A stretch of 64,000 bases of DNA from Candidatus Scatosoma sp. (GCA_045128175.1 JBGVRF010000045.1:3453-67452), one strand, 5' to 3'. Positions 9,062-60,689 are shown, counted from the first letter of the stretch. Made by a program: numbers and translations. The notes: generated from the letters alone by a model not told the origin.

Positions 9062-9078
9062 GTTTTATAACTCCTTAC

Positions 9079-9109
9079 CCTGCCGCCCGCGTGTTTTTCG
9101 GGCGGCAGG
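9079..9109 (-). promoter_or_regulatory. 11-bp GC-rich hairpin abutting the jag Shine-Dalgarno sequence
   Basis: Stem CCTGCCGCCCG/CGGGCGGCAGG with a 9-nt loop. No U-tract follows on either strand. Confidence 0.45.
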
Positions 9110-9132
9110 AAATATCATATCCTCAAACCGTA

Positions 9133-10596: not shown

Positions 10597-10625
10597 ATTT
10601 TAATTGTTTCCAAAAATTTTATTTT

Positions 10626-10661
10626 CCAACGTTCCGTTGCAATGAATTGGCAACTTCGTTG
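10626..10661. repeat. fragment of the triloop-hairpin repeat family
   Basis: CAACG-TTC-CGTTG and CAAC-TTC-GTTG hairpins. A 15-mer CAACGTTCCGTTGCA is shared with 32324-32338. Confidence 0.5.
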
Positions 10662-10731
10662 TCGTAAATCGCGATTCTTGCCCTTTGTCTTTTAAAAAGG
10701 GGCAAGCTTACTTGAGAGGGGAAGGGGCGTT

Positions 10732-11058
10732 TTACATAAGCCATTTACGCAGACGCCATTTCTCCGTCGCCGGATCGTACCCGCCCTTCGACCAGGGATT
10801 GCAACGCAAAATGCGCCAACTACCCAACAGTATGCCGAGGAACACCCCGCGATTATTGATGCTTTCGAGGGTGTATTGCGAACAGGTCGGTCGATAGCGA
10901 CATTCGTGTCGGGATAAAAATTTCTGATATAAGAGGATCAGCCAAAGACAGAGCATTTTCAGATACGGCTTAAAAACCGTCTTGCGTAAATACCCGACGT
11001 TAGCCCTGACCAGCGCGCCGAAACGCGCGTTTACAGTTTCTCTTTTCCGATCATCCAT
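10732..11058 (-). CDS. yidD: membrane protein insertion efficiency factor YidD
   Basis: Motif YQKFLS...CRYRPTCSQYTLE. The start is uncertain: the longest ORF overlaps rnpA by 28 nt, and an internal ATG at 10956 would give 74 aa. Confidence 0.8.
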   Translation of the reverse strand: MDDRKRETVNARFGALVRANVGYLRKTVFKPYLKMLCLWLILLYQKFLSRHECRYRPTCSQYTLESINNRGVFLGILLGSWRILRCNPWSKGGYDPATEKWRLRKWLM

Positions 11059-11348
11059 TGCAAATGCCGTTTAAACGTTTCAAAGGCGTATTTGTCCGAG
11101 ACTTTGGGAATGAGAATGACCGAATAGGTTCCTTTCATCTCGTCTTGCGCGGCGCGAAACGCTTCCCGAAGCAGACGTTTGATGCGGTTCCTTTGTACCG
11201 CCTTGCCGTGCTTTTTCCCGATGGAGATGCCCATTCGCATCTTGTCCGAAGGCCTGTACAGCATCGTCACCGACGCCGAAAACGCGCGTTTGCCTTTCTG
11301 AAAAAGCCTTTGAAAATCCGCTTGTTTTTTTATTCTCAAATACTTCAT
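11031..11348 (-). CDS. rnpA: ribonuclease P protein component
   Basis: Basic 105-aa protein containing RNRIKRLLREAF, positioned between rpmH and yidD. Confidence 0.9.
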   Translation of the reverse strand: MKYLRIKKQADFQRLFQKGKRAFSASVTMLYRPSDKMRMGISIGKKHGKAVQRNRIKRLLREAFRAAQDEMKGTYSVILIPKVSDKYAFETFKRHLQWMIGKEKL

Positions 11349-11482
11349 TGTTTCTACGCGGAAAGTTTTTACGCCACGTTTGACGTAAAATTTCGTCCGT
11401 TATTATAAAATGGCAAATCCTCTCCTTTATAAAAAAGGAAAGGAACGCGTTGTCGATTTCAGCTGTTTATTGACTGTAAAGA

Positions 11483-11617
11483 TCAATGAGTAAGTCTCTT
11501 TCTGCCTTTTGCTCTACGTCTCTTCAGCACCTTTCTGCCTGCGGTGGTCGCCATTCTCTTACGGAAACCGTGTACTTTGCTCTTCTGTCTTTTCTTGGGT
11601 TGATACGTTCTTTTCAT
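11483..11617 (-). CDS. rpmH: 50S ribosomal protein L34
   Basis: Hand-translated 44 aa: [44 protein letters not shown]. An AGGAGA RBS is present. It is absent from the ORF track because it is under 60 aa. Confidence 0.95.
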
Positions 11618-11794
11618 AATCTTTCTCCTGATTTTGGTTTTTTATCTTTTTGGTCGTATACCGCGTTCTTTCCCACGATAACTCTAATTATTATATCGCA
11701 AACGACGGAAGTCCGTCAAGCGATTTTAATGCGTTTTTTGATTTTTGTTCGTGGGGAGGCGGCGTTTTTACGGCAATTCGTTTTTTTTGATTCC

Positions 11795-11824
11795 GACGTC
11801 GTTTGTAAAGACGTCGTTTGTAAA
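11795..11824. repeat. perfect 2 x 15-bp tandem repeat GACGTCGTTTGTAAA
   Basis: Read directly from the sequence. It lies between the dnaN stop and the rpmH start. Confidence 0.9.
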
Positions 11825-11852
11825 ATAACAGCGCGACGCGTATACGTCGTTT

Positions 11853-12962
11853 TTATTCTTGAGGTTGATTGGTGCGCACGGGCAACACCAGATATTGGCA
11901 CCGCTTGTCCGATACGTTTTCCAGCGTGAACGGGGAAACGGGCGTGTTGAAAGACAGCGCCACTTCTTCTTCCTCCAACGCCTTCAACGCGTCAAGCAGA
12001 TACTTCGCGTTCATCGCGATCTTTAACTCTTTACCGTCAAGAGACGCCACGACCGTCTCTTCTACTTTACCCATTTCGGAATTTGCGTTGATGATGATCT
12101 TCCCGTTTTTGATATCGAAAATGATAAGGTTGTTCTTATCGCCGCGGATCAGAACGGACGCGCGTTCTACGCTGTCGATCAGCTCGCTGCGTCTCACCGT
12201 CGCCACCGTTGTAAATTCGACAGGGTAGATGTTTTCTTTACGCACGAACTCGCCCGAATACAAGCGGGACGTGATCACCGTATCCTGTACCTCTACGGAT
12301 AAGAGATTTTTGCTTGCATAGATTTTCAGATCGTCGTCGCCGTCAAGCATACGCGAGATCTCCGTCAACGTACGCGCGGGGCATACGATCTTCATTTCAC
12401 CCGCGCCGACTGCCGCGTCGCAATACGAACAAGCCATTCTGAACCCGTCGAGCGCCGTCGCCGTCAGCTTGCCCGCCTGCGTTTCCAACAGTGCGCCTTT
12501 GAGAATGGGGCGGCTGTCGTCCGTTGCACAACAGAACACGACTTTGGAGATGAGATTCTTCAGCTCGGATTCTTTGGTTTGGAAATAGCGATCCTCCTCC
12601 ACGCTGGACGAAAACTGCGGAAAATCGGAGGCGGGGAGCGCTTGCATATACGATTCACTGTCGCCGTAGCTGATCAGGATGCCCCGTTCGTCGGAAGAGA
12701 TAACGACCTCGAAGGACGCAATCTTGCCGACAAAATCGGCAAAGCATTTGCCGTTGACGCAAATTTCTCCCTCCTCGAGGATCTCTGCCTTGATCTTCTT
12801 TTCAATGGAAATTTCCCCGTCGTAGGCTTTTAACGTGAGCCCGTCGTTTTTTGCTTGTAGCTTGATGCATTCGAGAATGGGTGTGATCGTCTTGACTGCG
12901 CAAGCCTTGCTGACCGTAAGCGCCGCATCCGAAAGCACCGTTCCGTCGCAAACGAATTTCAT
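11853..12962 (-). CDS. dnaN: DNA polymerase III beta sliding clamp
   Basis: 369 aa with a three-domain clamp-like sequence (MKFVCDG...LQAKNDGLTLKAYDGE...) and a GGGAGGAAG RBS. Confidence 0.92.
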   Translation of the reverse strand: MKFVCDGTVLSDAALTVSKACAVKTITPILECIKLQAKNDGLTLKAYDGEISIEKKIKAEILEEGEICVNGKCFADFVGKIASFEVVISSDERGILISYGDSESYMQALPASDFPQFSSSVEEDRYFQTKESELKNLISKVVFCCATDDSRPILKGALLETQAGKLTATALDGFRMACSYCDAAVGAGEMKIVCPARTLTEISRMLDGDDDLKIYASKNLLSVEVQDTVITSRLYSGEFVRKENIYPVEFTTVATVRRSELIDSVERASVLIRGDKNNLIIFDIKNGKIIINANSEMGKVEETVVASLDGKELKIAMNAKYLLDALKALEEEEVALSFNTPVSPFTLENVSDKRCQYLVLPVRTNQPQE

Positions 12963-13099
12963 AGTGTTCTTCCTCCCGTTTCTAAGATGATTTTTATCTT
13001 ACATATTGTACCATATCCGCCCTGTTTTGGCAAGCAAAAACGGGGCGGTGACCGAATGATATTTTTCTTTTTATTTAGGCTTTGTTTCGACGCTCGGTT

Positions 13100-13500
13100 G
13101 ATTTCTGCCTGCAAAATACTGCGCGATACCGCGCTTGCGTTGAACGGCGTGAATATGGACGCGAATAGCGAATATTCTTTCGATGCCGACGGAAGCATCA
13201 TGTAGACACGGACGCTCTTCGTACAGCACTTTTGCTCAACCTTGGCGCAGGAAGCTCGTTGACGCTTGATAAAGGTGCAGTTATCGAATGACGTTTATAT
13301 ATTGAAGACGGAGCAGTGATTTCAAATAACGCTTCTTATAACAATAACAATCATGGTATCTTTAAAGTTTATTCTGGTTCTGTCGTTTATATGAATGGCG
13401 GCGAGATCAGTGAAAAACACGGTTAAATACGGTTTGTTGAACTCGCTTAATTCCCCTGTGGAAGGAGTTATTATAAATAGCGGAACGGTCACAATAATAT
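13100..13500 (+). pseudogene. possible decayed fragment of a beta-helix/repeat surface protein
   Basis: The frame from 13202 reads VDTDALRTALLLNLGAGSSLTLDKGAVIE*RLYIEDGAVISNNASYNNNNHGIFKVYSGSVVYMNGGEISEKHG*, with an in-frame TGA at 13289. Neighbouring frames show similar motifs (GVIINSGTVTI). There is no start or RBS, and the region is AT-rich. Confidence 0.3.
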
Positions 13501-13767
13501 CGCGACCAATAATGATAACAAAGATGCGTTTGCAGTAGTTATCAGTCAAGGGAAAAAAATAAAAGTAGTAAAAGCAATCGAAGCCGGGGAAGAACTCGGC
13601 AATTTTTTTTCGTCTAAGAAAGATAGAAAAGACAAGGTCAAGCGGAACGCTTGTGCTTACAATTTTTTTACAAAACGTTTTCAAAAGTCTAACGCGATTT
13701 TGATATTTTTTAAATAACTTCCGTGTATAATACAAATACAAAATCAAGAACACGGAGGAAACGTGAA

Positions 13768-14124
13768 ATGTATAACGCTATGTATAAAAACGAATCGAAA
13801 ATCGCGGCGGCGATCCGCGAAGAATACACGGAGAAAAAACCGAACAAGCTCGGCGAGCTTGTCGAGCTGGACAGAAAGGTAAAACGCCCCGCGGAGATAT
13901 TTGCGTACAGCTTCGGCACGGTCGGCTCGTTGGTGCTCGGCGCGGGTATGTGCCTTGCGATGAAGGTCATCGGCAATATGATGCCCCTCGGTATCGTCAT
14001 CGGTGCTGTCGGTATCGCAATGGTCACCGTAAACTATTTCATCTATAAAGCAATGGTGAAAAAGGGTAAGAAAAAATACGGCCGTCGGATCCTCGAACTC
14101 AGCAACGAGATCCTGCACGAATAA
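13768..14124 (+). CDS. small two-TM membrane protein (paralog of 7584..7976)
   Basis: GGAGG lies 9 nt upstream of the ATG at 13768. It aligns by eye with the 7584 protein. Confidence 0.65.
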   Translation: MYNAMYKNESKIAAAIREEYTEKKPNKLGELVELDRKVKRPAEIFAYSFGTVGSLVLGAGMCLAMKVIGNMMPLGIVIGAVGIAMVTVNYFIYKAMVKKGKKKYGRRILELSNEILHE

Positions 14125-14166
14125 GTTCTGTATAACAATAAAAATATAATAAAGGAAAAAACAATT

Positions 14167-14412
14167 ATGGCAAACTTTTTCAAAAAGGCATTTCAGGACA
14201 TGAAGGACAGCGCGAAGGCGCAACACGAAGTAGACAAAGCGAATTTCGAAGCGGTGAAAGCGGAATCGAAAGCGCAGTGGGAAGAAGCGAAAATGACGCC
14301 CGCGCAGCGTCAGGCGATGACGCAGAAGGAGCGCGACGAACAGATCGCGGAAGCGAAAGCGCGCACCGCGGCGGCGCAACAGCGTATCGACGCGGCAAAA
14401 AACAACAAATAA
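14167..14412 (+). CDS. small Lys/Glu/Ala-rich coiled-coil protein, function unknown
   Basis: 81-aa ORF with an upstream AAGGAAAAAA and a charged helical composition. Confidence 0.5.
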   Translation: MANFFKKAFQDMKDSAKAQHEVDKANFEAVKAESKAQWEEAKMTPAQRQAMTQKERDEQIAEAKARTAAAQQRIDAAKNNK

Positions 14413-14450
14413 GTCGATTGACGAACGAAGCGTTTAAAGAGTATAACAAA

Positions 14451-14480
14451 AGCCGTATCCGACGGGAAACGGCTTTTTTT
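14451..14480. terminator. terminator between convergent genes
   Basis: Stem AGCCGT/ACGGCT followed by T7, with an A-rich stretch upstream. Confidence 0.6.
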
Positions 14481-14782
14481 CATGCGCCTCGATCGGGGTG
14501 GGCGCGGCGCAGACGGCGGGTATATTCGGCGATCCGCGTCAGATCCCGCGCGCTGTTCTCGTTCAACACCCGAAAATCGCGTAGGCGCAGGGCCAGCTCG
14601 AAACGGGTTCCGTCATCGGTGAGAAATTCCGCGTACATGGGTCTGCCGCGGCCGGTATAAGAATAGGTGAGCGCGCCTAAACTGCCGCTCGGCAAGCCTT
14701 CCGCCCTGTGCGTATTATTTGTGAGGACGATGAGATCCAGTTCTTCCGCAAGGCGATTGTCTATGTATTTGTTCTTTTCCAT
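14480..14782 (-). CDS. hypothetical protein (100 aa)
   Basis: Strong AAAGGAGGA RBS. No motif was recognised. Confidence 0.55.
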   Translation of the reverse strand: MEKNKYIDNRLAEELDLIVLTNNTHRAEGLPSGSLGALTYSYTGRGRPMYAEFLTDDGTRFELALRLRDFRVLNENSARDLTRIAEYTRRLRRAHPDRGA

Positions 14783-15120
14783 ATCCGTTTGTCCTCCTTT
14801 TCTTTTTTAGCGTGCTATTAGTTTACCACGGATTTTGAAAATTACAAGAGGGGACTGCCAACTTTTTTTCAAAATTTGGAAAATTTTTTTTAAACGGCGT
14901 TTTCGGGCGAATAGGATCGGAGAAGAGAGGAGGCTCTTTCGGGGGAGTATTCGGAACAACTTTAAAACGTTGACTTTGCGTTCGCGATATGTTGCAATAT
15001 ATAGGTAAAGTAGGAAATGGAGGTACCATGTATGCGTAAACGTTTGGAGGAAATGATCTTGGAGGCGTTGTGGCGATTGTTTTCTATCTTTTTGGAGCTG
15101 TCAGCGAAAGGGAAATTCGT

Positions 15121-15152
15121 AAAAAATACACCGCTTTGTTGAAAGCGGTGTA
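15121..15152 (-). terminator. rho-independent terminator of the amino-acid ABC operon
   Basis: On the minus strand, an 11-bp stem TACACCGCTTT/AAAGCGGTGTA with a 4-nt loop is followed by T6. Confidence 0.75.
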
Positions 15153-15359
15153 CAAAGATCGGGATGGAAGCAAACAAGTCCCTTGTGGGGGGGGGAGTTC
15201 GCCCCGCGAAGGGAAACAAGCAAAGCTTTGCTTGATTGGAGGGAGTGTTTATGGGGCTCCGCTCCATACCACGCCAAAGGCTTCCGCCTTTGGATTCTGA
15301 CAAGAAACTGAGTTCCTTGATTTCCGACACGGTCCGGTGGAACGCTGGCGGTACGTTGG
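15153..15359 (-). repeat. hairpin-array intergenic repeat, copy D (minus orientation)
   Basis: The reverse complement starts right after the ABC ATPase stop: CCAACGTACCGCCAGCGTTCC...GGAAATCAAGGAACTCAGTTTCTTG..., followed by a series of short hairpins. Modules are shared with copies A to C. Confidence 0.8.
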
Positions 15360-16244
15360 TTAAAGTACCTTGGAAAGGAAGTCTTTCAGACGTTCGTCTT
15401 TGGGTGTTTCGAAAAATTCTTTTGGGGTGTTCTCTTCCTTGATCACGCCATCGCTCATAAAAATGACTCGGTTTGCGACTTCTTTCGCAAAGCCCATTTC
15501 GTGCGTGACCACGACCATGGTCATGCCTTCCTGCGCCAGCTCGGTCATTACTTTCAGCACTTCGCCGACCATTTCAGGATCCAGCGCGCTGGTCGGTTCG
15601 TCAAACAACATCACGTCGGGATTCATCGCTAAGGCGCGTACGATCGCGATACGTTGCTTCTGCCCGCCCGACAGGGTTGCGGGATAGACGTTCGCCTTGT
15701 CTTCAAGCCCTACTTTTTTCAATAACGCCATCGCTTGCGCGTTCGCTTCCGCTTCGGGCATTTTTTTCAGCTTCATCGGCGCCAGCGTGATGTTTTTCAA
15801 AACCGTCAGATTGGGAAACAGGTTGAATTGCTGAAATACCATGCCGATCTTCTGTCTGTGCAGATTGATCTTTTTTGCGACGACCTTTTCGATCGCTTTT
15901 TCTTTTTCGCGCAATGCTTGATATTCCGTTTCCAAAGTAAGATATTCTTCCGTATTCGCGGTTTTGTCTTTCTTTAACGCGTTGAGCTGTCTTTTCAAAT
16001 ATACGCGTTCGTTTTTAAAAACGTATTCGCCGTCGAGTAAAATTTCGCCTGCGGTGGGCGTTTCCAAAAGATTTAAACAGCGTAAAAAGGTGGATTTTCC
16101 ACAGCCTGAAGGTCCGATCACGGCGACGACGTCGCCTTTGTTGATCTCGACGTTGACGCCTTTCAGGACTTCCAATTCGCCGAATTTTTTATGCAGATTT
16201 TTAACGGACAGCAATAATTTTGTTTCGTTTGTATTAGCGTTCAT
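15360..16244 (-). CDS. amino-acid ABC transporter ATP-binding protein (GlnQ/ArtP-like) with a roughly 45-aa coiled-coil insert
   Basis: Walker [10 protein letters not shown], signature LSGGQKQR and Walker [12 protein letters not shown]. An insert lies between Walker A and the Q-loop. Confidence 0.92.
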
Positions 16245-16926
16245 TTCTCTTCAACCTCTTTTCAATATATTTGATCGCGAATACCATGAGATATACCACG
16301 ACGAGATAGCAACAACCGACGAGGAGACCGCTGGCGAGGTAGTTAGGTACGCTGCGGTAGATAGTGCCTGCGGCGGCGTTGAGGTCGAACGTAAGACTGC
16401 CGGGCGTGGAACCGACCCAGCCGATGATGGAAGTTTCTTTTAAAAGAGCGATCATTTCGTTGCCGATTGCGGGGATGATGTTTTTGATCGCCTGCGGCAG
16501 AATGATGCGAATCATCGTCTGCAACCAATTCAAGCCCAAAGCTCTGCCTGCTTCCATTTGTCCTTGATCGACTGACGTGATACCTGCGCGAATGCTTTCG
16601 GAGACGTATGCGCCGGAATTTATGCCGAAGGTAATGATCGCGGCGTAAGGTTTGAAGCCGGGGATCGCAAATACGGCAAACACCATGATGAAGAGCTGTA
16701 AGGCAACGGGTGTGCCACGGAATACGGTCGTATAGATCCCGCAAATGATTTTGGGTAGTTTCATCCATTTGTTGTCGGGCGCGATCTTAACGACGGCGAC
16801 GACAAAGCCTAAAAACAGACCGAGTACCGCGGCGATCAGCGTGACGAGCAACGAATTGCCCAAGCCTTGAAACATATAGCCGACAAGCTCTTTGTCGGAA
16901 AGAATTTTAATGATATCCTGAAACAT
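16234..16926 (-). CDS. amino-acid ABC transporter permease
   Basis: Polar amino-acid permease pattern ([12 protein letters not shown]), overlapping the ATPase start. Confidence 0.9.
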
Positions 16927-17010
16927 AGCTTTTTCCTGTGATGTGACTTTGCGGTCATAGAAAGAGGGAAAGACGTGCCGTCCTTCCCTCGCGTAAAGTC
17001 GTTATATCGA

Positions 17011-17835
17011 TCAAAGACCGAGGTGCTGATTGACGAGCGCCTGAATGCCTTCTTCGCCGAGTTCGTTCAACACTTCGTTGATGGCGTTGAGCAGTTCGGT
17101 CTGGCCTTTGGTTACGCAGATCGCGTATACGTCGACGGCAGCTTCGTCGTTTTCGCCTTCGCCGCCTTTATAATACAGGGGGGCGCAAGCGAGCTCGGAT
17201 CTGCCTTCGATAAGTTTTTTCGCGGGAAGCTCGTCGATGATGAGCACGTCGGATTCTAAGCCGATATCGGCAACGGCGGACGCCAATGCGTCGAAACCGA
17301 CCTTTGCCGCGCCTGTGTCATAGATCGTGCCGCCTTCATCCAACTCGTCGCCGAGGAACAGATCTGCCGTCGTACCGTTCTGAACGGCGATGCTTTTACC
17401 TGCAAGCGAATCCCAATATACGCCCGTCACCGTGTCGGTCGTGGTGCTTTCGTAGGAAGCCGCTGTGTCCGTCTTGTAGATGACGTAAAGGTTTGCCGTG
17501 TAATATTCGTTGGAGAAATCTACCTTTTCGGCTCTTTCGGGGGTCACGGAAATGCCTGCTGCGCCAACGTTGCACAGCTTGCCTGCCGCAACCGCGTCGA
17601 TGATCGTATCGAAGCTGACGTTTTCGAATACGACTTTTTTGCCGAGCTTCTCGCCGACTCTGTTCATAATGTCTACGTCAACGCCGACGATTTTACCGTC
17701 GAAAATATATTCGAAAGGGGCGAAGCCTGCCTCGGTGTAAACGGTCAACGTTTCTTCAGTGGATACGCAGGAGCCGAGTCCGAGGCTTGCGCATGCCGCT
17801 ACGGTTGCGAGAGTCATTGCAATAAATTTTTTCAT
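17011..17835 (-). CDS. amino-acid ABC transporter substrate-binding lipoprotein
   Basis: Signal peptide with lipobox LGLGSC and a family-3 solute-binding pattern. Confidence 0.88.
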   Translation of the reverse strand: MKKFIAMTLATVAACASLGLGSCVSTEETLTVYTEAGFAPFEYIFDGKIVGVDVDIMNRVGEKLGKKVVFENVSFDTIIDAVAAGKLCNVGAAGISVTPERAEKVDFSNEYYTANLYVIYKTDTAASYESTTTDTVTGVYWDSLAGKSIAVQNGTTADLFLGDELDEGGTIYDTGAAKVGFDALASAVADIGLESDVLIIDELPAKKLIEGRSELACAPLYYKGGEGENDEAAVDVYAICVTKGQTELLNAINEVLNELGEEGIQALVNQHLGL

Positions 17836-21980: not shown

Positions 21981-22418
21981 ATGCTTTTTAATTTATTGAC
22001 TGCAAGCGACGCGGTGGGCTCTGCGACGTCGTCCGGTGCCACTCCAGCGTCAAATCCTTGGCAACAGTGGATCATCATCGGGTTGTTTGCCGTTCTTCTG
22101 ATCGTGTTTATGGTCATCAACAGACGTTCGCAGAAGAAGAGACAGGAAGAAACGAACAATATGCTCAATTCTATCCAGCCCGGTAATAAGGTCAAGACTA
22201 TCGGCGGGATCTGCGGCATCGTCGTAGAGGTTTGCCCTGAGGACAACACCTTCGTGCTGGAGACGGGTACGGAAGCAAGTGGAAAATCCTATCTTAAATT
22301 CGACAAGCAGGCGATCTATCAAACGGACGCCGTGACGAAGAAAGAGGAAAAGGCGGAAGAAAAGCCGGAAGAAACGACGGAAACACCCGCGGAAGAAACC
22401 AAAGCGGACAAAGAATAA
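21981..22418 (+). CDS. yajC: preprotein translocase subunit YajC with an acidic C-terminal extension
   Basis: Single TM followed by RRSQKKRQEE...L..GNKVKTIGGICGIVVEV. Confidence 0.85.
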   Translation: MLFNLLTASDAVGSATSSGATPASNPWQQWIIIGLFAVLLIVFMVINRRSQKKRQEETNNMLNSIQPGNKVKTIGGICGIVVEVCPEDNTFVLETGTEASGKSYLKFDKQAIYQTDAVTKKEEKAEEKPEETTETPAEETKADKE

Positions 22419-26417: not shown

Positions 26418-27570
26418 GAATACGGGAAAGAAATGGACCCTTTGGTCTATCATTATTGCAGTTGTCCTCATTGCGGCGGTTGCGCTTGGAATCGTTTTCG
26501 GCGGCTTTAACGGCGCGACCTCGATGGACGACGCCAAGACGTTGACTGTGACCATGAACAAGCTGGTTTACAACACGCAGCTTGAAAAGGTCGAAGAGAT
26601 CTGTGAAAACGAATTCGGTTCTTTGAAGTACGTTGCCGAAAAGAAAGGCGAGATGTCGGGCGACGACAGCGAGATCGTGTATGTGTTTGACGCGGATGCG
26701 GATCTGGCTGCGTTGGAGGAGGCTTTGAACGCGAAGTTCGAAGCGGCTACGAACGGCGGCGAGCTGGACGGCTCGTTTATCAGCGTTACAACGAATGAAG
26801 AAGCGGTGGTTTCCACCTTGGCGAAAGACGTTGTACTTCGCGGCGTGATTGCGCTGGCGGTGTTTGCGGTTCTGGCATTCGCATACGTATCTTTGCGTTA
26901 TAAACTCGATATGGGTATCGTTGCAGCGATCTGCGTCGTGCTTAGCGGTGCGTTGACGGCGGCGATCGCAATGATCGTACGTATCCCCGTTACGGCATCG
27001 TTGGTGTACGTGATCTGCGTGTCCGCGTTGATGACAGCGGTGACCGTGCTTTTGACCTTTAACAAGATCCGCGCGAACGCGAAAGCGGAAGAAGCGATTT
27101 CTGCGGAAGAACTTGTTTCCTCTTCTGTCGCATCGAAAGAGATCTGTAAGCTGGTTTGGTTGACAGGCGGCGCGATCGTTTTGGTCGGCGTTGTATCCGG
27201 CGTTGCATCGTTGATCTCTGCGGGTGTGCTTTCGACGACGTTCTGGTTTGCCGTTCAGGCAGTCGTTGCTGTTTTGGTGGCTTGGTTTATGGGCGTCGTA
27301 TATGCGCCTGCGCTGTATCTGCCTTTCAAGGCTGCGGAAGACGAGAAAAACGAAGGCAAGACCAAAACCGATTATCAGGGCGCAAAGAAAACGAGCGCGA
27401 AGGTAAAGAAAGTTTTCGCTCCGAAAGCTTCCGCTAAAAAAGTCGAACTCGTCGAGGAAGAAGTAAAAGAGGAAGCTGAAGCTACGGTCGAAGAAGCTGT
27501 TGAAGAAACGGTTGAAGAAGCTGTTGAAGAAACGGAAGATGCTCCCGCGGAAGAAGTGACCGAAGAATAA
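26410..27570 (+). CDS. secF: protein translocase subunit SecF with an acidic repeat tail
   Basis: SecF-like TM bundle that overlaps the secD stop. The tail reads VEEEVKEEAEATVEEAVEETVEEAVEETED. Confidence 0.85.
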   Translation: MSKNTGKKWTLWSIIIAVVLIAAVALGIVFGGFNGATSMDDAKTLTVTMNKLVYNTQLEKVEEICENEFGSLKYVAEKKGEMSGDDSEIVYVFDADADLAALEEALNAKFEAATNGGELDGSFISVTTNEEAVVSTLAKDVVLRGVIALAVFAVLAFAYVSLRYKLDMGIVAAICVVLSGALTAAIAMIVRIPVTASLVYVICVSALMTAVTVLLTFNKIRANAKAEEAISAEELVSSSVASKEICKLVWLTGGAIVLVGVVSGVASLISAGVLSTTFWFAVQAVVAVLVAWFMGVVYAPALYLPFKAAEDEKNEGKTKTDYQGAKKTSAKVKKVFAPKASAKKVELVEEEVKEEAEATVEEAVEETVEEAVEETEDAPAEEVTEE

Positions 27571-27750: not shown

Positions 27751-30075
27751 ATGAAGAAAATCGTTCCCGAATACGCCTTTACGGCAGAACAACTGAATAG
27801 TATATCCGTTCTTGCCGATGAAACGGGGTTGACGGAACAAATCACGCGTATCTTGTATGCGCGCGGCATCGACACTGCGCAGAAGATCCGTCGTTTTATG
27901 CGCCCTTCAGAAAAGAATTTTCTTTCTCCCTTTTTGATGCGCGGTATGCGCGAGGCCGTGGAGATGATCACTGCGGCGCGCGACGAGGGCAGAACGGTCG
28001 CCGTATTTGGCGATTATGACGCGGACGGCATTTGCGCGTCGGCAATCATGTATCATGCTTTGAAAGAATTCGGTATCGACGCGCATATCTACGTGCCTGA
28101 ACGCGCGGATGGGTACGGTTTGTCCATCGATGCGGTGGATCGTATTTTCGATGATTGCAATCCCGAATTGTTTATCACGGTCGATTGCGGTATTTCCTGC
28201 GCAAAAGAGGCGCAATATATTTATGAGTTGGGTTCGGACGTGATTGTAACCGACCATCACGAGTTGCCGGGGATCTTGCCCGATTGTGTGATCATCAATC
28301 CCAAACTCAAAGACGAATATCCCTATGACAATCTCTGCGGCGCGGGGGTCGCGTTTAAGCTTGCTTGCGCGTTGATCGGCGAAGCCGCGTATAAATATTT
28401 GGATTTTGCCACGCTTGCGACGGTGGCGGACAGCGTGCCGCTACTGGGCGAAAACCGCGACATCGTAACGGAGGGACTGAAGCTGTTCAACAATCGCATC
28501 CGTCCCTGTTTTGCGGCGTTGTTAGGGAAAAATTATGAAAGCGTGACGGCGCAGACCCTGGCGTTCAATATCGCGCCGCGCGTGAATGCGGCGGGCAGAA
28601 TGGGAGACGCGTGGGCGGCGTTCCGGTTGTTTACCGGCGAGCGTGAATCGGAGATCTACGAGCTGGCGACAAAGCTTTGTCTGTACAACACCGAACGACA
28701 GAAATGTTGCGACGAACTGTATCTTGCAGCCAAGAAAAAGCTGTTGGAGAAGGGGGCGTACGGCAACGTGATCATGCTTTCGGATGAGAGCTGGAACGCG
28801 GGCTTTATCGGTATCGTTGCCGCACGGATTGCGGAGGAATATAACCGTCCGACGTTGCTGTTCGTACACAACGGCGATATGCTCAAAGGTAGCGCGAGAA
28901 GTATTGACAACATCAACATTTTCAACGCGCTGAAAAACTGCTCGGAATATATTGAAGAATTCGGCGGACATGCGCAGGCAGCGGGCATCAACATTCGTTT
29001 TGATATGTTCGAGGTGCTGGAGGCGGCGCTGAACGAAGAGATCGGAAAGACGTATTCGCCTGCGGATTTTGAGCAGACGATCTCCGTCAGTGAAGAGATC
29101 ACGTCCGTGTTCTCGGAAAAGTTTGCGCGGGAGCTGGTTGCGATGGAGCCCTACGGCGTGGGGCATAGACGACCGCTGTTTTGCGTATCGGCGAGCGCGT
29201 GTGTGGCGCGGCCTGTCAAAGCGATGTCTCCCCATCTTTCGGTGCGATGCGATTATATTGATCTGATGTATTTTTCGGGTGCGAAAAATCTGAAGATCAT
29301 CGAAAGCGACGTAAAGAAGAATTTTATTTTCGAGATCAATATTTCCCGCTTTAAGGGCAGGGAATATATCAAAGGTTACGTACGGGATCTTTTATACGAC
29401 GGGCGCACGGGCAGGGGGACGGCGGAAAGTATTTTTGCAAATGCGATCACGCGGTTTTATTCTCCCGAGGTGAACGTGCAGGCGACTCGCTTGACAATGG
29501 AAGAAACGGTGGCGATGATCGAACGGAAACATGCGGAATGTCCGTACGGGCTGTGTCTGATCGCTTCCGATCGCCGTACGTTGAAATTTTATGAGGGCTT
29601 GGAAAGGTTCGGCTGCGATCTGTTTTATCTTTCATCGAGAAATCTTTCCAACGCATTGATCGTGTCACCTGCCGCTGACGCCGATCTTTCGGGGTTCCGT
29701 GATTTTATCTTCCTCGATACGCCGTCCGATTTTAACATTGCAGCATTAGAGGGGAGGCAGGTATTTGTCAACGGCGATATTTGCGGATATAAGATGTTCG
29801 AAAATTTGGACACGGGTAGAGAGAGTTTGCTTGAAATTTTTTCGGCGCTTCGCCGCGATATCCATTCTTTGAACGGAGAGACGGTGGAAGAGCTTGCTTT
29901 TGCTTGTGACGGGCTTGGATTTGATAAGAGGGAATTTATTTTCGCGTTGAGTGTTTTTGAAGAATTGGGGCTGGTATCCTTCGGCGACGGTAGGTTGACC
30001 GTATATCGAGGGATCAAGGCAGAGCTGACCGATTCGACAGTATATCGTAAGGTATGCTTATTGCAACAGGGCTGA
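27751..30075 (+). CDS. recJ: single-stranded-DNA-specific exonuclease RecJ
   Basis: DHH motifs (VFGDYDADG, VTDHHE) and a DHHA1 region (GGHAQAAG). Confidence 0.92.
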   Translation: MKKIVPEYAFTAEQLNSISVLADETGLTEQITRILYARGIDTAQKIRRFMRPSEKNFLSPFLMRGMREAVEMITAARDEGRTVAVFGDYDADGICASAIMYHALKEFGIDAHIYVPERADGYGLSIDAVDRIFDDCNPELFITVDCGISCAKEAQYIYELGSDVIVTDHHELPGILPDCVIINPKLKDEYPYDNLCGAGVAFKLACALIGEAAYKYLDFATLATVADSVPLLGENRDIVTEGLKLFNNRIRPCFAALLGKNYESVTAQTLAFNIAPRVNAAGRMGDAWAAFRLFTGERESEIYELATKLCLYNTERQKCCDELYLAAKKKLLEKGAYGNVIMLSDESWNAGFIGIVAARIAEEYNRPTLLFVHNGDMLKGSARSIDNINIFNALKNCSEYIEEFGGHAQAAGINIRFDMFEVLEAALNEEIGKTYSPADFEQTISVSEEITSVFSEKFARELVAMEPYGVGHRRPLFCVSASACVARPVKAMSPHLSVRCDYIDLMYFSGAKNLKIIESDVKKNFIFEINISRFKGREYIKGYVRDLLYDGRTGRGTAESIFANAITRFYSPEVNVQATRLTMEETVAMIERKHAECPYGLCLIASDRRTLKFYEGLERFGCDLFYLSSRNLSNALIVSPAADADLSGFRDFIFLDTPSDFNIAALEGRQVFVNGDICGYKMFENLDTGRESLLEIFSALRRDIHSLNGETVEELAFACDGLGFDKREFIFALSVFEELGLVSFGDGRLTVYRGIKAELTDSTVYRKVCLLQQG

Positions 30076-30164: not shown

Positions 30165-32300
30165 ATGGAAAAAACGTTAGAAAGAATCAAGGAAACTTAT
30201 CCGCAATTGGTAGTCAAGGCGTACGAGTATGCCAAAGAAGCGCACAGCAATCAGAAGCGCGCTTCAGGCGAGCCGTACTTTATCCATCCTTGCGCAGTGG
30301 CGGATATCCTCATGGAATTGGGGTTGGACGCCGCGACGATTGCCGCGGCGCTTTTGCATGACGTCATCGAGGACACTGCTTCGACCGCGGAGGACATCAG
30401 ACGGGAATTCGGCGACGAGGTGCTGGATCTTGTCAGCGGCGTTACCAAGCTGGAAAGGATCGAATTCAAATCCCGCGAGGATGAGGACGCGGAGAATTTC
30501 CGTAAAATTTTCGTCGCGATGGCGAAAGATGTGCGCGTGATCATCATTAAGCTTGCCGACCGTTTGCACAATATGCGGTCGCTGAACTTTCTTTCGTACG
30601 AGCGGCAACAACGTATGGCGAGCGAAACGCTGGATATCTACGCGCCGCTTGCGGGTCGTCTGGGTATTTCGCAGATCAAGTGCGAGCTGGAAGATCTGTG
30701 TTTGAAATATCTTGATCCCGATTCGTATGAATATCTCGTTTATAACATTCGAGAAAAGCTTTCCGAACGGAAGGAGTTTGTCAACGGTATAGTCGAAGAG
30801 ATCAAGGAGTTGATGAAAAACGACGGTGTGGAAGGAGAGGTGTTCGGAAGGCCAAAGCATTTCTATTCCATTTATAAAAAAATGAAGAATAAGGGCAAGA
30901 CGCTGGACCAGATCTACGATCTGACGGCGGTGCGCGTCATTGTCAAGGATATCAAGGAATGTTATACGGTTCTGGGGCGCATCCACGAAAAATGGAAGCC
31001 TATTCCCGGTCGTATCAAAGATTATATCGCAACGCCGAAGCCCAACAAATATCAATCGTTGCATACGACGGTCATGACGCGGTACGGTCAGCCGTTCGAG
31101 ATCCAGATCCGTACTGAAGAGATGCATCATATTGCGGAATTCGGTATCGCGGCGCATTGGAAATATAAAGAAGGCCGCACGGAAGAGGCGAACGGCGATT
31201 TTGAGAACAGACTCGCTTGGCTTCGCGAAGTCATGGAATGGCAGGGGGATTTGAAAGACTCGAAAGAGTTCATAAGCGCCCTGAAAACGGAGTTGTACAG
31301 TCACGAACTGCTGGTATTTACGCCGCGCGGGAAGGTTATTTCTCTGCCGCCCGACGCGACGCCCGTCGATTTTGCCTACGCGATCCATTCGGAGGTAGGA
31401 AACCACTGTACGGGGGCAAGAGTGAATTCGAAAATCGTGCCGCTGACGACGACGCTGGAGGTCGGGGACGTGGTCGAGATCATCACTTCGCCGAACTCGA
31501 AAGGTCCGTCGCGAGATTGGCTGAAGTTTATCAAATCGTCGAGCGCGAAAGCGAAGATCAGGCAGTTTTATAAAAACGAACTGAAGGAAGAGAATATCCG
31601 CGTCGGACAGACGAAACTGGAAGAAGAGGCGAAGAAAAAGGGCTTTTCGCTGTCCGAGTTGCTTAACGAGGAGAGTTTCAAACGTATTTCCGAACGGTTT
31701 TCGTTCGGTGAAATGGAGGAAATGTTTGCCGCGGTGGGATATGGCTCAATCACGGTCAATCAGATCCTGTTCAAGCTGATCGATTATTACCGTAAAGAGA
31801 CGCCGTTGCCGTTCGAAGTGCACGCGGGAGACGGAGGCGGAAGAACGCCCGGTGGCGTTTTGGTGAACGGTCAGGCGGGGATGTTATTGCATTTTGCGGG
31901 TTGTTGTTCGCCCGTACCGGGCGACGAGATCATCAGTTATACCTCTCGCGGACGTGGTACGGTGATTCATCGTGCAGACTGTTCGAATCTGCGCGGCGTG
32001 GATCCGCATAGGTTGTTGCCTGCGTCTTGGCAAATCGCGGCAGGGGTGAAGCAGCGATATAATGCGAATATTTCCATTCGCGCGACGGAGCAGGGCGCGG
32101 CGCTGTCTGTACTTTCGTCCGTGGTATCGGAAATGAAATTATCGATCACGGCGGTAAATGGACGGATTGATAAAAACCATGACGCTGTGTTAGAGGCATC
32201 TATTGCGTTGACGGATATTTCCGAGGTGGATCTTTTGATTAAGAAGATGTTGTCCGATAAGAGGATCTACGACGTACATCGTATCACAGCACTGTCGTAA
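30165..32300 (+). CDS. relA: bifunctional (p)ppGpp synthetase/hydrolase RelA/SpoT homolog
   Basis: HD domain (HDVIEDT), synthetase domain (YQSLHTTV), and TGS and ACT regions. Confidence 0.95.
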   Translation: MEKTLERIKETYPQLVVKAYEYAKEAHSNQKRASGEPYFIHPCAVADILMELGLDAATIAAALLHDVIEDTASTAEDIRREFGDEVLDLVSGVTKLERIEFKSREDEDAENFRKIFVAMAKDVRVIIIKLADRLHNMRSLNFLSYERQQRMASETLDIYAPLAGRLGISQIKCELEDLCLKYLDPDSYEYLVYNIREKLSERKEFVNGIVEEIKELMKNDGVEGEVFGRPKHFYSIYKKMKNKGKTLDQIYDLTAVRVIVKDIKECYTVLGRIHEKWKPIPGRIKDYIATPKPNKYQSLHTTVMTRYGQPFEIQIRTEEMHHIAEFGIAAHWKYKEGRTEEANGDFENRLAWLREVMEWQGDLKDSKEFISALKTELYSHELLVFTPRGKVISLPPDATPVDFAYAIHSEVGNHCTGARVNSKIVPLTTTLEVGDVVEIITSPNSKGPSRDWLKFIKSSSAKAKIRQFYKNELKEENIRVGQTKLEEEAKKKGFSLSELLNEESFKRISERFSFGEMEEMFAAVGYGSITVNQILFKLIDYYRKETPLPFEVHAGDGGGRTPGGVLVNGQAGMLLHFAGCCSPVPGDEIISYTSRGRGTVIHRADCSNLRGVDPHRLLPASWQIAAGVKQRYNANISIRATEQGAALSVLSSVVSEMKLSITAVNGRIDKNHDAVLEASIALTDISEVDLLIKKMLSDKRIYDVHRITALS

Positions 32301-32600
32301 CCAGCGTTCCGCCAGCGTTTCGGCAACGTTCCGTTGCATCCAGTTAGGAAGTCAAGAAACTCAGTTTCTTGCGGGTGTGGGCAGAGCCCACGAAAAATAT
32401 CCCTTTTAAGCAAGCTGTGCTTGCGCCTTTACGCCTTTGGCGTTGATGCGTTGCTTTGCAACACAATGAAATAACGCAAAGCAGAGCTTTGCTCTCTTAA
32501 GGCTTAGTATTTATGGAGCTCCGCTCCATGCCTCGTTAAGGGCTACTCGCCCTTAAAACCTCGCAAGGGACAATGTCCCTTAACCCTTGACTTGGTCCAG
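32301..32600 (+). repeat. hairpin-array intergenic repeat, copy A
   Basis: Starts at the base after the relA TAA. Core GGAAGTCAAGAAACTCAGTTTCTTGCGGGTGTGGGCAGAGCCCACGAA is at 32347-32394, followed by at least 7 short hairpins. The right end CCCTTGACTTGGTCCAGG is inverted relative to the left module. Confidence 0.85.
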
Positions 32601-32631
32601 GGGAATGCTGGCTGGTGGGAGGAGAAAGTTT

Positions 32632-33255
32632 ATGAAAATAATCAAGATCGCGCCGCGCGGATTCGCGGCGAATACGTACGTTTTGACGGAGGACGGGAAA
32701 AATGCCGTCGTTATTGACCCTGCACAGACAAGGGCGGAAAGCGAATTGATCAAGCTTGGTCTCAACCCTGCCTACGTCCTTTTGACACATTGCCATTTCG
32801 ATCACGTCGGTGGCGTGAGCGTTTTACAGGCGAGTGGCGCAAAGGTCGTATGCTCGGAGTCGGAAAAACCCCTGATTGGAACGAATGCGGATCTGTTCGA
32901 GATGTTCGGCGCGCCCCGTGTGAACTATACAGTCGATAAAACGATGAAGGACGGCGAGGAGAGGGAATTTTGCGGAATAAATATTAAAACTCTACTCACG
33001 CCCGGGCATACGAAAGGGAGCTGTTGCTACCTTGTAACAGAAAAGGACGGGGGTAGGTATTTGTTCACGGGCGATACGCTGTTTGCAAGCAGCATCGGTA
33101 GGACGGATTTTCCAACGGGGAATATTATGGAGATGCGCGCAAGCTTGCGCCGCATTTCCGCGCTGGAGGGGGATATGCCCATATATGCCGGTCACGAAGA
33201 GGAGACTACGCTCGATAAGGAACGGAAAAATAATCCGTTTCTGTTGGACGCTTAA
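32632..33255 (+). CDS. MBL-fold metallo-hydrolase
   Basis: HCHFDH motif, with GGGAGGAG upstream of the ATG at 32632. Confidence 0.88.
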   Translation: MKIIKIAPRGFAANTYVLTEDGKNAVVIDPAQTRAESELIKLGLNPAYVLLTHCHFDHVGGVSVLQASGAKVVCSESEKPLIGTNADLFEMFGAPRVNYTVDKTMKDGEEREFCGINIKTLLTPGHTKGSCCYLVTEKDGGRYLFTGDTLFASSIGRTDFPTGNIMEMRASLRRISALEGDMPIYAGHEEETTLDKERKNNPFLLDA

Positions 33256-40800: not shown

Positions 40801-41095
40801 ACGGAAAAACCTGCCTTTTTGGTAAAACCAAGGAGGCAGGTATTTGTTTACGTTAAAAATCGTTAAAAAGTCGGAACCGTCATAGTGCTCGCTATGCTCG
40901 CTTAGTCGGCATGACGGAGGGGCAGGTATGCGTTTACCGAGCTTATTTCCCCCTTTTAACGATATAACGAGCGAAAAAGTATTTTTAAAATTCCTGTATT
41001 TTGTGATGATTTTTCTGTGGTAAATGTATTGTAATTTCCTTTTTTATGTTTTATAATGGGGAAAACCTAAAACAAAACGGATAAGGAGATCAAAA

Positions 41096-48531: not shown

Positions 48532-48633
48532 CTATACAAAATAAAGAAATATGGGGGCAGGTATGCGTTCATTGCCCATAAAGACGCGCGAGAGCGCTGT
48601 ATCGCTACGCCTTTCAGCAACAAGACTTTTGCG

Positions 48634-49837: not shown

Positions 49838-50016
49838 TGTGAAGATCGCAGAAGATGGACTTTTGTCCGACCGAAGGAGTAAATCTCTCAGGTGACCGTA
49901 GGGTTGGGAACTGTGATCGGATAGCACTCCGGAGAATCCCGTAACCAATCGGGTGCCGAAGGGGCAAAGCGGTGCAGAACGTTTCTTGCCGCCAATCTCT
50001 CAGGCAAAAGGACAGA
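49838..50016 (+). ncRNA. glycine riboswitch (two aptamer-like units; the second is canonical)
   Basis: Second unit: GGAGAA...GGGTGCCGAAGGGGCAA...AATCTCTCAGGCAAAAGGACAG. First unit: CCGAAGGAGTAA..CTCTCAGGTGACCGTAGG. It sits upstream of an AGCS symporter. Confidence 0.8.
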
Positions 50017-50226
50017 GGTTGCTTTACCTTGATACGTTGCGGTTTTGACGCGCGCTTTTTTGCGTTTTTCAAATACCTGTTTTCCTTTTTTTTGGGGTAT
50101 TTTAACGTATCATAAGGAAAAGTTTCGCATTTGACACGGAGTGATCTTATAGGGACGCTTCGTGTTTTTTATTTAAAACAAATTTTTAAGCCGGGAAGTT
50201 TGTTTTCGGCATAGGAGGTATTATAT

Positions 50227-53378: not shown

Positions 53379-53442
53379 ACAAATAATTATGCGGAAAAAC
53401 AAATAAATAAAAAGGCTATGACGGGAAAAAATTTGTAAAGTT

Positions 53443-53698
53443 TGCTTGTGCAGAGAGTCGGCGTTTGGTGCGAGCCGATACGGCTTTACGGAATATAGCT
53501 CCTCCCCGAGCCGCCGAGAGAACGGCGAAAAAGTTTTTCAAGCCAAGTAGATTCGGACGGGTTCTCCCGTTACAGAGAAGTTCTTTTCAAGGACATGAGT
53601 GGGCGAGATATCGCCAAACGGAGTGGTACCGCGGAGAAAAATTCTTCGTCTCTTTCGTACGAACGCATTGCGCGCGTTTGTGGAAAGAGACTTTTTTT
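53443..53698 (+). ncRNA. T-box riboswitch leader (probably Leu-specific) with terminator
   Basis: AGAGAG bulge, distal-loop GGTGCGA, T-box sequence GAGTGGTACCGCGG, and terminator GTCTCTTTC...GAAAGAGAC plus T7. A CTC codon at 53497-53499 lies in the expected specifier region. Confidence 0.85.
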
Positions 53699-55435: not shown

Positions 55436-55516
55436 ATACCATGTATGCGTTTACGTTTTTGGGAAATCAGTTTTGGACTTCCGCGTAAACTGTTGCCGCA
55501 ACACCAACGAAGTTGG
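55436..55516. repeat. repeat-family fragment in the leuA-ilvB spacer
   Basis: ATACCATGTATGCGTTTACG motif, a GTTTACG...CGTAAAC hairpin, GTTGC-C-GCAAC and CCAAC-GAA-GTTGG. Confidence 0.5.
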
Positions 55517-57812: not shown

Positions 57813-58835
<1,023 letters not shown>

Positions 58836-58960
58836 CCAGTCGGCGTACCGCTGGACCAACGTACCGTTGGATCTATTTGGGAAGTCAAGGAACTCAGTTC
58901 CTTGCGGGTGTGGCAGAGCCCACGAAGGTAATCCCAAAAAAGCAACCGATAAGTTGCGCA
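58836..58960 (+). repeat. hairpin-array intergenic repeat, copy B
   Basis: Begins right after the ilvC TAA. It contains hairpin CCAACG-TAC-CGTTGG and core GGAAGTCAAGGAACTCAGTTCCTTGCGGGTGTGGCAGAGCCCACGAA (58880-58926). Confidence 0.85.
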
Positions 58961-60646: not shown

Positions 60647-60689
60647 CGGCATACCAGGTATGCGTTTACGTATAAAAGGAGAGAAAACA

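Follow-up and report, generated by a model that had tools for sequence, protein, structure and literature searches.

Mosaic palindromic hairpin arrays between genes in a clade of uncultured gut Clostridia

Described palindromic repeats and the family in Candidatus Scatosoma

Small interspersed palindromic repeats have been well studied in Proteobacteria and in streptococci. No prior description was found for the uncultured gut Clostridia which dominate many animal-gut metagenomes. The stretch analysed here, 64,000 nt from Candidatus Scatosoma sp. (GCA_045128175.1 JBGVRF010000045.1:3453-67452, hereafter the window), carries four arrays of short hairpins, copies A to D, assembled from palindromic modules designated H0 to H4. 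An earlier note, made from the window's sequence alone, had described a modular non-coding hairpin-array family of the BOX/BIME kind. That family is genuine, and no Rfam family matches it. It is a new family of a known kind, that of small interspersed mosaic palindromic repeats. It works in the manner of BOX and of the repetitive extragenic palindrome (REP)/bacterial interspersed mosaic element (BIME) group, and is not a member of the latter. The copies are probably small, clade-restricted, non-coding and non-autonomous mosaic palindromic repeats which act at the level of DNA and are co-transcribed with their host operons.

The family resembles REPs and BIMEs in having short, GC-closed extragenic palindromes set in mosaic arrays with conserved linkers, in lying in 3' untranslated regions (UTRs) and between operon cistrons, where it is co-transcribed, and in having several hairpin versions per genome. 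In BIMEs the REPs alternate in orientation and have a GT(A/G)G head, and a RAYT gene is flanked by inverted REPs (PMC2817692; PMC6006769). The present family differs in combining different hairpin classes in a fixed order and one orientation, with a stutter of 5' half-hairpins; no RAYT gene was seen here, and the host is an uncultured Clostridia lineage. High-copy extragenic palindromes, often near stop codons, are a further REP-like trait. According to the account of Liang et al. 2015 given in PMC12306157, 260 of 496 E. coli REPs are found no more than 15 nt from a stop codon, where they stall ribosomes; the corresponding figure for proximity here is 28 of 58 sense arrays.

BOX elements of Streptococcus pneumoniae, also a Bacillota host, consist of ordered modules (boxA-boxB(n)-boxC) comparable to the series H0-H1-H2-H3, and share with the present arrays a variable number of internal modules, extensive secondary structure and co-transcription with neighbouring genes. 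They have been judged parasitic, with past bursts (PMC3049150). No sequence relation to BOX was apparent on comparison by eye, and the Rfam, phage and plasmid searches yielded no similar sequence; starts at stop codons are not reported for BOX in the literature consulted, and large BOX elements have open reading frames (ORFs) whereas the family here has none. Mycobacterial interspersed repetitive units (MIRUs) lie inside operons and are part of the polycistronic mRNA, with variable numbers of tandem units and ends touching the flanking genes (PMC3184786), and in each of these respects the arrays are similar. MIRUs, however, have small ORFs overlapping the neighbouring stop and start codons, and tetranucleotide direct repeats. 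The arrays have no ORF and no direct repeats, and their 3' side does not touch the next gene.

The attC sites of integrons are recognised as folded single-stranded DNA. Like the arrays they are imperfect palindromes whose start coincides with or overlaps the preceding gene's stop codon, in that gene's orientation, but the genes flanking the arrays are core operon genes (ilvC, leuD, relA) and not cassettes, and no integrase occurs in the context. RYYYAAC/GTTRRRY core sites were not found at the ends when the array junctions of the window were inspected by eye. Correia/NEMIS, RUP and bcr1 MITEs (miniature inverted-repeat transposable elements) are also small, non-coding and base-paired, with inverted termini in full-length copies, and they too are found beside or within transcription units and can influence the processing of mRNA (PMC3049150).

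The main interest of the family is that a stop codon, of whichever type, marks the start of about half the sense copies, exactly or to within a few bases, echoing the unexplained closeness of E. coli REPs to stops. It provides an independent and simpler system, with one defined first hairpin, for weighing insertion against deletion pressure and against selection on termination or mRNA decay. The repeats also break assemblies in at least one metagenome-assembled genome (MAG) and inflate operon spacers from about 30 to about 400 nt, and as the number of units varies between strains they make a handy strain marker.

Hairpin modules, ends and distribution

The 25-nt core hairpin H1, with its 5' flank (GGAARTCAARRAACTCAGTTYCTTG), occurs five times in the window, compared with none expected from 100 shuffles (positions 32347, 58880, 62514 and 62753 on the plus strand and 15301 on the minus strand), and these matches are grouped in four arrays. 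A profile built from relatives matched those five units and no other part of the window, with E = 3e-21 to 7e-10. All four copies described earlier are present where they had been placed, with some corrections to their outline. Copy A ends at about 32616, not 32600, where its right end abuts the ribosome-binding site (RBS) of the next gene (GGGAGGAG), and copy C has two cores. Of the 48-nt core said to be common to the copies, copy B has a version with a 1-nt deletion and copy D retains the first 25 nt (H1) only. A sixth, partial copy consists of H0 and a spacer module (Table 1). The copy D array is distinct from the terminator which follows it.

The density of hairpins sets the arrays apart from their surroundings. 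In 286 nt of copy A there are eight perfect hairpins whose stems measure 6 bp or more, and copy C has six in the part counted, while the remaining intergenic regions of the window (about 40) mostly have none to two. The folding z-scores of arrays were -5.2 and -5.6. A long-range pairing between H2 and the ATGGAGC hairpin in the minimum free energy fold of copy A is an artefact, similar palindromes being mutually complementary. A CRISPR-like array was ruled out, as the 'spacers' between the cores are the same repeated modules.

The unit is an ordered series of short perfect palindromes in the same orientation, H0-H1-H2-H3-H4. This order is kept, and units repeat one to three times, with tandem periods of 127, 165, 175 and 239 nt. 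H0 has the consensus SNNNCG-TWC-CGNNNS, with a 5-6-bp stem and a triloop; its versions include CCAACG-TTC-CGTTGG, CCAGCG-TTC-CGCTGG, CAAGCG-TTC-CGCTTG, GCAACG-TTC-CGTTGC, CACGC-AAT-GCGTG and CAAGC-TAC-GCTTG. The stutter of the earlier note corresponds to 11-nt half-hairpin repeats, (CCAACGTTCCG)n, often found 5' of H0. Nested insertion was ruled out as their source because the displaced 3' half of H0 was never found downstream. H1 (GGAAGT-CAAGRAAC-TCA-GTTYCTTG) is invariant apart from one covarying pair, which is A-T in 18 sequences and G-C in 18, and it has a paralogue, H1' (GGGTCAAGGGAC-ATT-GTCCCTTG). H2, H3 and H4 each exist in several discrete, perfectly complementary stem versions which recur across species. 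In the MAG RGIG4035 every combination of H2, H3 and H4 versions occurs, an indication that modules have been shuffled.

The hairpins covary, as had been proposed. Cells of the H1/H2 alignment are paired in 99.4% of cases, and two-sided changes occur in 32 cells compared with 10.5 ± 5.2 after shuffling, a number which none of 500 shuffles reached. Pairing of the GGG which follows H1 with the CCC of the linker was also considered; it showed no usable covariation by eye.

In at least six genomes, full-length units (212-283 nt) are closed by an inverted H1' (...CAAGGGACAATGTCCCTTGACCC), and in these units only there are terminal inverted repeats, GGAAGTCAAG.../...CTTGACCC. In copy A the inverted end is longer and includes H0. 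Its MITE-like character, suggested earlier, is real: the reverse complement of the right end scored 32 against the H0 module of copies C and D, compared with 12.3 ± 2.0 for shuffled sequence. Such ends, on an element with the small size, lack of coding sequence and high degree of base-pairing attributed to MITEs (PMC3049150), could indicate a classical MITE, derived from an insertion sequence (IS) with those terminal repeats and moved in trans by a DDE transposase; copies B and D, the second unit of copy C and the RGIG4035 units would then be one-ended or rearranged remnants. We regard this as highly improbable. The right end is missing from those units and from most copies, and the arrays are mostly one-ended. 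No consistent target-site duplication was found at the flanks of nine full-length units (those of copy A are GTAA and TGGG), and no IS-sized or otherwise matching element with these ends was found in the loci searched. The family is not AT-rich, and both the H0 stutter and the shuffling of modules are atypical of MITEs. The lack of target-site duplication and matching IS in what was searched, the base composition and the one-ended arrays also separate it from the Correia/NEMIS, RUP and bcr1 elements.

If the arrays were true REPs or REPINs, or IS200/IS605-type (PATE) elements, the hairpins would be single-stranded DNA substrates of a Y1 HUH transposase (RAYT or TnpA), which at replication forks would insert them into one strand, 3' of a short target. 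Consistent with this, they are short and GC-closed with conserved 5' flanks, H2 (GGGT-GTGGGC-AGA-GCCCAC-GAA) resembles published REPs such as TGTGGGAGCGGGCgTGCCCGCGAA, target duplication is absent, many left ends follow TAA, and the inverted H0 ends of copy A are like a REP doublet. This origin is nevertheless very unlikely. No GTAG or GTGG head stands at a fixed place before the palindromes, the flanks of H0, H1, H3 and H4 being TAA then CC.., GGAAGT.. and AAAGCAA.., and only H2 loosely resembles the GGGTGTGGGC head. The hairpins of each array are co-oriented and do not alternate; arrays run head-to-tail, no intergenic region has H1 in both directions, and copy A alone has an inverted H0 at its far end. 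A fixed tetra- or pentanucleotide target of the PATE type is absent, the left flank being TAA in post-stop sense arrays and unrelated elsewhere. The TAA itself is dispensable, as it is missing before antisense arrays and is replaced by TGA or TAG in some sense arrays, and orientation does not follow the replication strand. A tblastn search of the window and about 0.75 Mb of loci gave no Y1 transposase, a weak test in that the query was an approximate IS608 TnpA. Inverted copies flank no gene other than an LRR lipoprotein gene (in locus L111), and the genes between inverted H1 pairs are all ordinary. With ordinary genes between inverted pairs, no Y1 match and no IS-sized end pair, no autonomous parent was found among the loci examined.

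The family is restricted to one clade of uncultured gut Clostridia, "Ca. Scatosoma" and its relatives. In the genome collection 87 of 90 matches were in draft MAGs which bear the name Clostridia bacterium, Clostridiales bacterium or Candidatus Scatosoma and which came from ruminant, chicken and human gut; at least 21 species-level genomes are represented. A metagenome scan gave 19 short contigs, all from one assembly. The core was absent from Rfam and from phage records, plasmid records and viral contigs, and an origin from phage, plasmid or virus was ruled out by the zero matches there. Rfam was searched at the gathering threshold with the window and ten related loci, and at E up to 10 with copies A and C. 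Even the looser search gave no match to the arrays, which rules out a known RNA family; elsewhere in the window only a T-box and a glycine riboswitch were reported. The earlier expectation of hundreds of copies per genome finds no support, as exact cores number 1-9 per draft MAG, the exception being RGIG4035 with 51. The RGIG4035 copies are near-identical, with shuffled modules and tandem units, and represent a recent burst. One array of this MAG adjoins a cluster of TTATCCACA repeats which are DnaA-box-like (JAFTPQ010000050.1 8612-9492, L026) and probably mark its oriC region.

Placement at stop codons, orientation and the level of selection

All four arrays of the window start one base after the TAA of the upstream gene and in the orientation of that gene, as the earlier note had stated. 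The stops are those of relA/spoT (32300), ilvC (58835), leuD (62479) and, on the minus strand, the ABC ATPase gene (15360). They are native: the last residue of IlvC and of LeuD is unchanged in relatives without the element, which rules out a stop supplied by the element and truncating the gene. Distances were analysed for 39 sense arrays whose first H1 is at most 140 nt from a stop. Nineteen start at the base after the stop, and 28 within 9 nt of it. The next-base starts are made by H0 or the stutter in 14 cases, by an (AAATGCR)n run overlapping the stop in three and by another repeat family in two, and H1 itself lies 0-9 nt past the stop in nine more arrays. Additional next-base starts occur in L104, L111, L116 and L120.

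The placement is positional and does not depend on a DNA target sequence. Seventeen of the 18 H0 arrays with a next-base start follow TAA, which is only a marginal enrichment (p = 0.05) given that TAA accounts for 76% of stops. TGA and TAG cases exist, and the stop-codon start is independent of which stop is used. These cases, the lack of TAA before antisense arrays and the high TAA background rule out TAA as a target or as part of the element. General genome compaction was likewise ruled out as the cause, as ordinary terminators in the window begin 11-70 nt past stops. On the 3' side there is no such adjacency to the following gene: from the ends of copies B and C to the next ATG there are 27 and 38 nt.

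Other repeats were seen at such sites. In L019, L024, L048, L052 and L067 (HGM11404), 4-6 copies of the heptamer AAATGCR form a run just 5' of H1 which starts at the upstream stop and overlaps it, occupying the place of the 11-nt H0 stutter of the window. A family of tandem units of about 100 nt (GCGTCGCAYTTCATCGTTGC...GTACG...CCTTGAANTGCTCGCATCTCC) starts directly after the ilvC stop (Table 1), and the same module lies 5' of H1 in the MAGs L016, L020, L039, L062 and L069.

The arrays had been described as always sense-oriented. A sense bias exists, but 'always' is incorrect. In intervals between same-strand genes there were 26 sense and 7 antisense arrays outside RGIG4035, and 3 sense and 13 antisense within it. 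Outside RGIG4035 the upstream gene is on the same strand for 35 arrays and on the opposite strand for 12. About one-third of all arrays are antisense or near gene starts. Only about 5 of 31 antisense arrays are near the RBS of the gene they face. Orientation tracks genes and not the replication strand: 7 of 33 sense arrays are beside lagging-type (low-skew) genes, and 18 of 20 antisense arrays are beside leading-type (high-skew) genes. Control by the replication strand is also ruled out in the window, where GC skew is positive throughout and copy D follows a minus-strand gene block.

The sense strand of the arrays contains no terminator and no promoter. On the antisense strand of copies B and C, H3 and the A-run upstream of it read as an intrinsic terminator (GCAAGGCAAAGCCTTGC-TTTTTTGGGA), and antisense copies would therefore have a polar effect within an operon. 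In the RGIG4035 variant, often found in antisense orientation, the A-run is replaced by TTAA. As an account of the orientation bias this is only suggestive, the numbers being small.

Many of these features would also be shown by a functional cis-acting RNA, that is, a selected 3'-UTR or intercistronic element serving as an exonuclease barrier, a processing site or a termination brake, in the ilv-leu operon for example. The 26:7 sense bias outside RGIG4035, an orientation which follows the genes even where those look lagging-strand, the lack of internal sense-strand terminators or promoters, and the start within 9 nt of any stop in 28 of 39 sense arrays, when terminators lie 11-70 nt downstream, would all fit such a role. 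So would hairpins which covary and fold strongly (z about -5) and an H1 sequence which is invariant across at least 21 species. An RNA function is still unlikely in view of the mismatches and of the variation between strains and species. Selection on the sense RNA is expected to tolerate G.U and to purge A.C, but single internal stem mismatches within units were G.T in 19 cases and A.C in 25, and over whole spacers the counts were 61 and 57. Wobble asymmetry as a sign of RNA selection is thus absent. The 'G-U intermediate' described earlier has its counterpart in A.C intermediates, which are no rarer, and both H1 hairpins of copy C contain an A.C pair.

Strain comparisons lead in the same direction. 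Copies A and D are fixed in all strains of the species. Single-nucleotide polymorphisms (SNPs) which break an H1 pair are uncompensated (G to A in L094; C to T in L095, L096, L098 and L101). The element has 3 SNPs in 332 nt, compared with about 19 in about 7800 coding nt, which is close to the synonymous-site rate, so that its substitution rate looks neutral. From copy C of the sister strain L001 a single unit of exactly 239 nt is missing, its boundaries being inside identical cores. Orthologous ilv-leu junctions are empty in L103 (31 and 23 nt) and hold other families in other sister species, so both presence and family identity vary among close species at one and the same junction. To these may be added the third of arrays which are antisense or near gene starts, and the burst-like, selfish proliferation in RGIG4035. 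The strain and junction facts fit DNA-level dynamics which are largely neutral or selfish, and the RNA-level reading of the earlier note finds no specific support in the G.T/A.C parity, the uncompensated SNPs or the variable occupancy of junctions.

Copies multiply and shuffle as DNA, as seen from the burst in RGIG4035, the combinations of H2 and H3 versions, the tandem units, the 239-nt unit gained or lost between strains, and the gene junctions which hold different families or none in sister species. The rest of the account which we favour is inferred. The hairpins may be kept by the recognition of a putative hairpin-specific DNA enzyme, with H1 as the predicted recognition site, or alternatively template switching which corrects palindromes may keep them perfect. 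Perfect palindromes can be maintained by template-switch correction without selection. Copies would persist where they are harmless, between a stop codon and the next RBS, and the orientation tolerated in operons would be that which keeps the antisense terminator formed by H3 and a U-run out of the message. Once co-transcribed, the arrays should fold into strings of hairpins, and H0, at +1 past the stop, would be covered by the ribosome as it terminates. If E. coli REPs no more than 15 nt from the stop are a guide, slower termination or a barrier to 3'-exonucleases might be expected. Any such effect on ribosomes or exonucleases is regarded as a side effect and not as the reason for the element's existence.

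Several points weigh against repeats which spread as DNA and are passively tolerated. Neither the window nor about 0.75 Mb of loci yielded a mobilising enzyme, paired ends at an IS-sized distance (600-3500 nt) were absent from the loci searched, and there was neither a consistent target sequence nor a target-site duplication. The stop-codon start is stronger than passive tolerance predicts: nearly half of the sense arrays analysed begin at the very next base, ordinary window terminators begin well downstream, and the 3' side has no comparable adjacency to the next gene. The sense bias outside RGIG4035 is also expected from RNA function, the terminator account of it covers few cases, and the power of the mismatch test is modest (44 events).

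The excess at stops could instead reflect a process linked to translation termination or to transcription which places or keeps arrays there. The arrays would then act as operon punctuation, with H0 stalling or releasing the terminating ribosome, the string of hairpins setting the stability of the upstream cistron, and H1 serving as the putative site of a dedicated protein. We think this decidedly unlikely. If true, it would constitute a Clostridial counterpart of REP-mediated translation control, with its own architecture and recognition factor.

Gene context and other repeats

Positions of the array modules and of neighbouring features are given in Table 1. Copies B and C lie inside the T-box-controlled ilv-leu operon. 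Genes were called with a self-trained codon-usage caller, which agreed with public calls where these were compared in the window, the exceptions being leuD, which a first pass did not call, and the starts of leuB and leuC, which were extended. The leuB ORF calls ran into copy C. The longest leuC ORF begins with an ATG at 60660, within a palindrome motif; comparison with L001 and L103 puts the true start at about 60690 (aaaaggagagaaaacaATGtcaatg), and the ilvD-leuC spacer is therefore about 43 nt and not 13.

Table 1. Array modules and neighbouring features. Positions are those of the window unless a related locus is named.
Feature	Position	Strand	Remarks
Copy A, full-length array	32301-32616	+	between relA/spoT and MBL-fold gene
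Copy A H0 stutter	32301-32337	+	hairpin GCAACG-TTC-CGTTGC at 32323-32337
Copy A H1	32347-32371	+	
Copy A H2	32377-32391	+	
Copy A H3	32410-32424	+	
Copy A additional hairpins	32476-32492, 32513-32529, 32536-32556	+	
Copy A inverted H1'	32565-32581	+	
Copy A inverted H0-like terminus	about 32590-32616	+	
Copy B, short array	58836-58959	+	left part only; between ilvC and ilvD
Copy B H0	58856-58870	+	
Copy B H1	58880-58904	+	
Copy B H2	about 58909-58924	+	1-nt deletion
Copy B H3	58942-58957	+	
Copy C, two units	62480-62834	+	between leuD and leuB
Copy C unit 1 H0	62491-62505	+	
Copy C unit 1 H1	62514-62538	+	
Copy C unit 1 H2	62544-62558	+	
Copy C unit 1 H3	62578-62594	+	
Copy C unit 1 additional hairpins	62637-62651, 62672-62690, 62696-62716	+	
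Copy C unit 1 decayed inverted H1'	about 62720-62745	+	
Copy C unit 2 H1	62753-62777	+	
Copy C unit 2 H2	62783-62797	+	
Copy C unit 2 H3	62816-62832	+	
Copy D	15154-15359	-	directly after TAA of ABC-transporter ATPase gene
Copy D H0 stutter	15359-15326	-	
Copy D H1	15325-15301	-	
Copy D H2 variant	15293-15274	-	CCAAAGGC-GGAA-GCCTTTGG
Copy D segment	15234-15217	-	CAAGCAAAGCTTTGCTTG
Isolated fragment	13615-13653	-	CAAGCGTTCCGCTTGACCTTGTCTTTTCTATCTTTC; H0 and beginning of spacer module abundant in RGIG4035
Intrinsic terminator	15126-15153	-	12-bp stem and T-run; downstream of copy D
relA/spoT-family gene	30165-32300	+	upstream of copy A; stop TAA 32298-32300
Metallo-beta-lactamase (MBL)-fold gene	32632-33255	+	downstream of copy A
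ilvC	57819-58835	+	upstream of copy B
ilvD	58985-60646	+	downstream of copy B
leuD	61985-62479	+	upstream of copy C; coordinates transferred from L001 gene call
leuB	62873-63941	+	downstream of copy C
ABC-transporter ATP-binding gene	15360-16244	-	upstream of copy D
T-box leader	53409-53656	+	head of leuA-ilvBNCD-leuCDB operon
Glycine riboswitch aptamer	49919-50025		upstream of 50227-51876 gene
GTGAATTG palindrome arrays	L106 3490-3761, 8993-9234; L107 3336-3761, 9092-9333		
Units of about 100 nt	L104 7021-7300; L105 1515-1700; L106 7021-7250; L107 7021-7330		

A second motif, GGRGGYAGGTAT(T/G)(T/C)GTTYACG, recurs on the plus strand at 29745-29773, 33041-33069, 40824-40852, 40910-40935, 48545-48573, 55436-55460 and 60646-60668, two of these copies being within ORFs. 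Between ilvD and leuC it takes the form of a perfect palindrome, GCATACCAGGTATGC, with GTTTACG after it, and the spacer between leuA and ilvB has a near copy. Versions in relatives are GCATACCAGGTATGCGTTGAA (L103), CCCAGGTATGCGTTGAA (RGIG4035) and GGGGCAGGTACGCGTTGAA (L106). The motif may represent an operator or a further family of repeats.

In a sister species (L106, L107) the spacers leuA-ilvB and ilvD-leuC contain different short palindromes separated by a constant 8-mer, GTGAATTG. Past a centre these arrays are mirrored as palindrome plus CAATTCAC. In L106 the TGA stop of ilvD is part of the first GTGAATTG, and RGIG4035 has a similar (palindrome + AACTTCAC)n tail.

The minus-strand gene block at 8060-17835 includes dnaN (11853-12962), with no dnaA evident beside it in the window, and the GC skew of the window stays positive; the block could be a local inversion or an unusual origin region. 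Finally, GAA-rich coding repeats of 12 and 24 nt lie near the ends of two ORFs, at 22332-22409 and 27454-27555, and would encode low-complexity tails rich in Glu and Lys.

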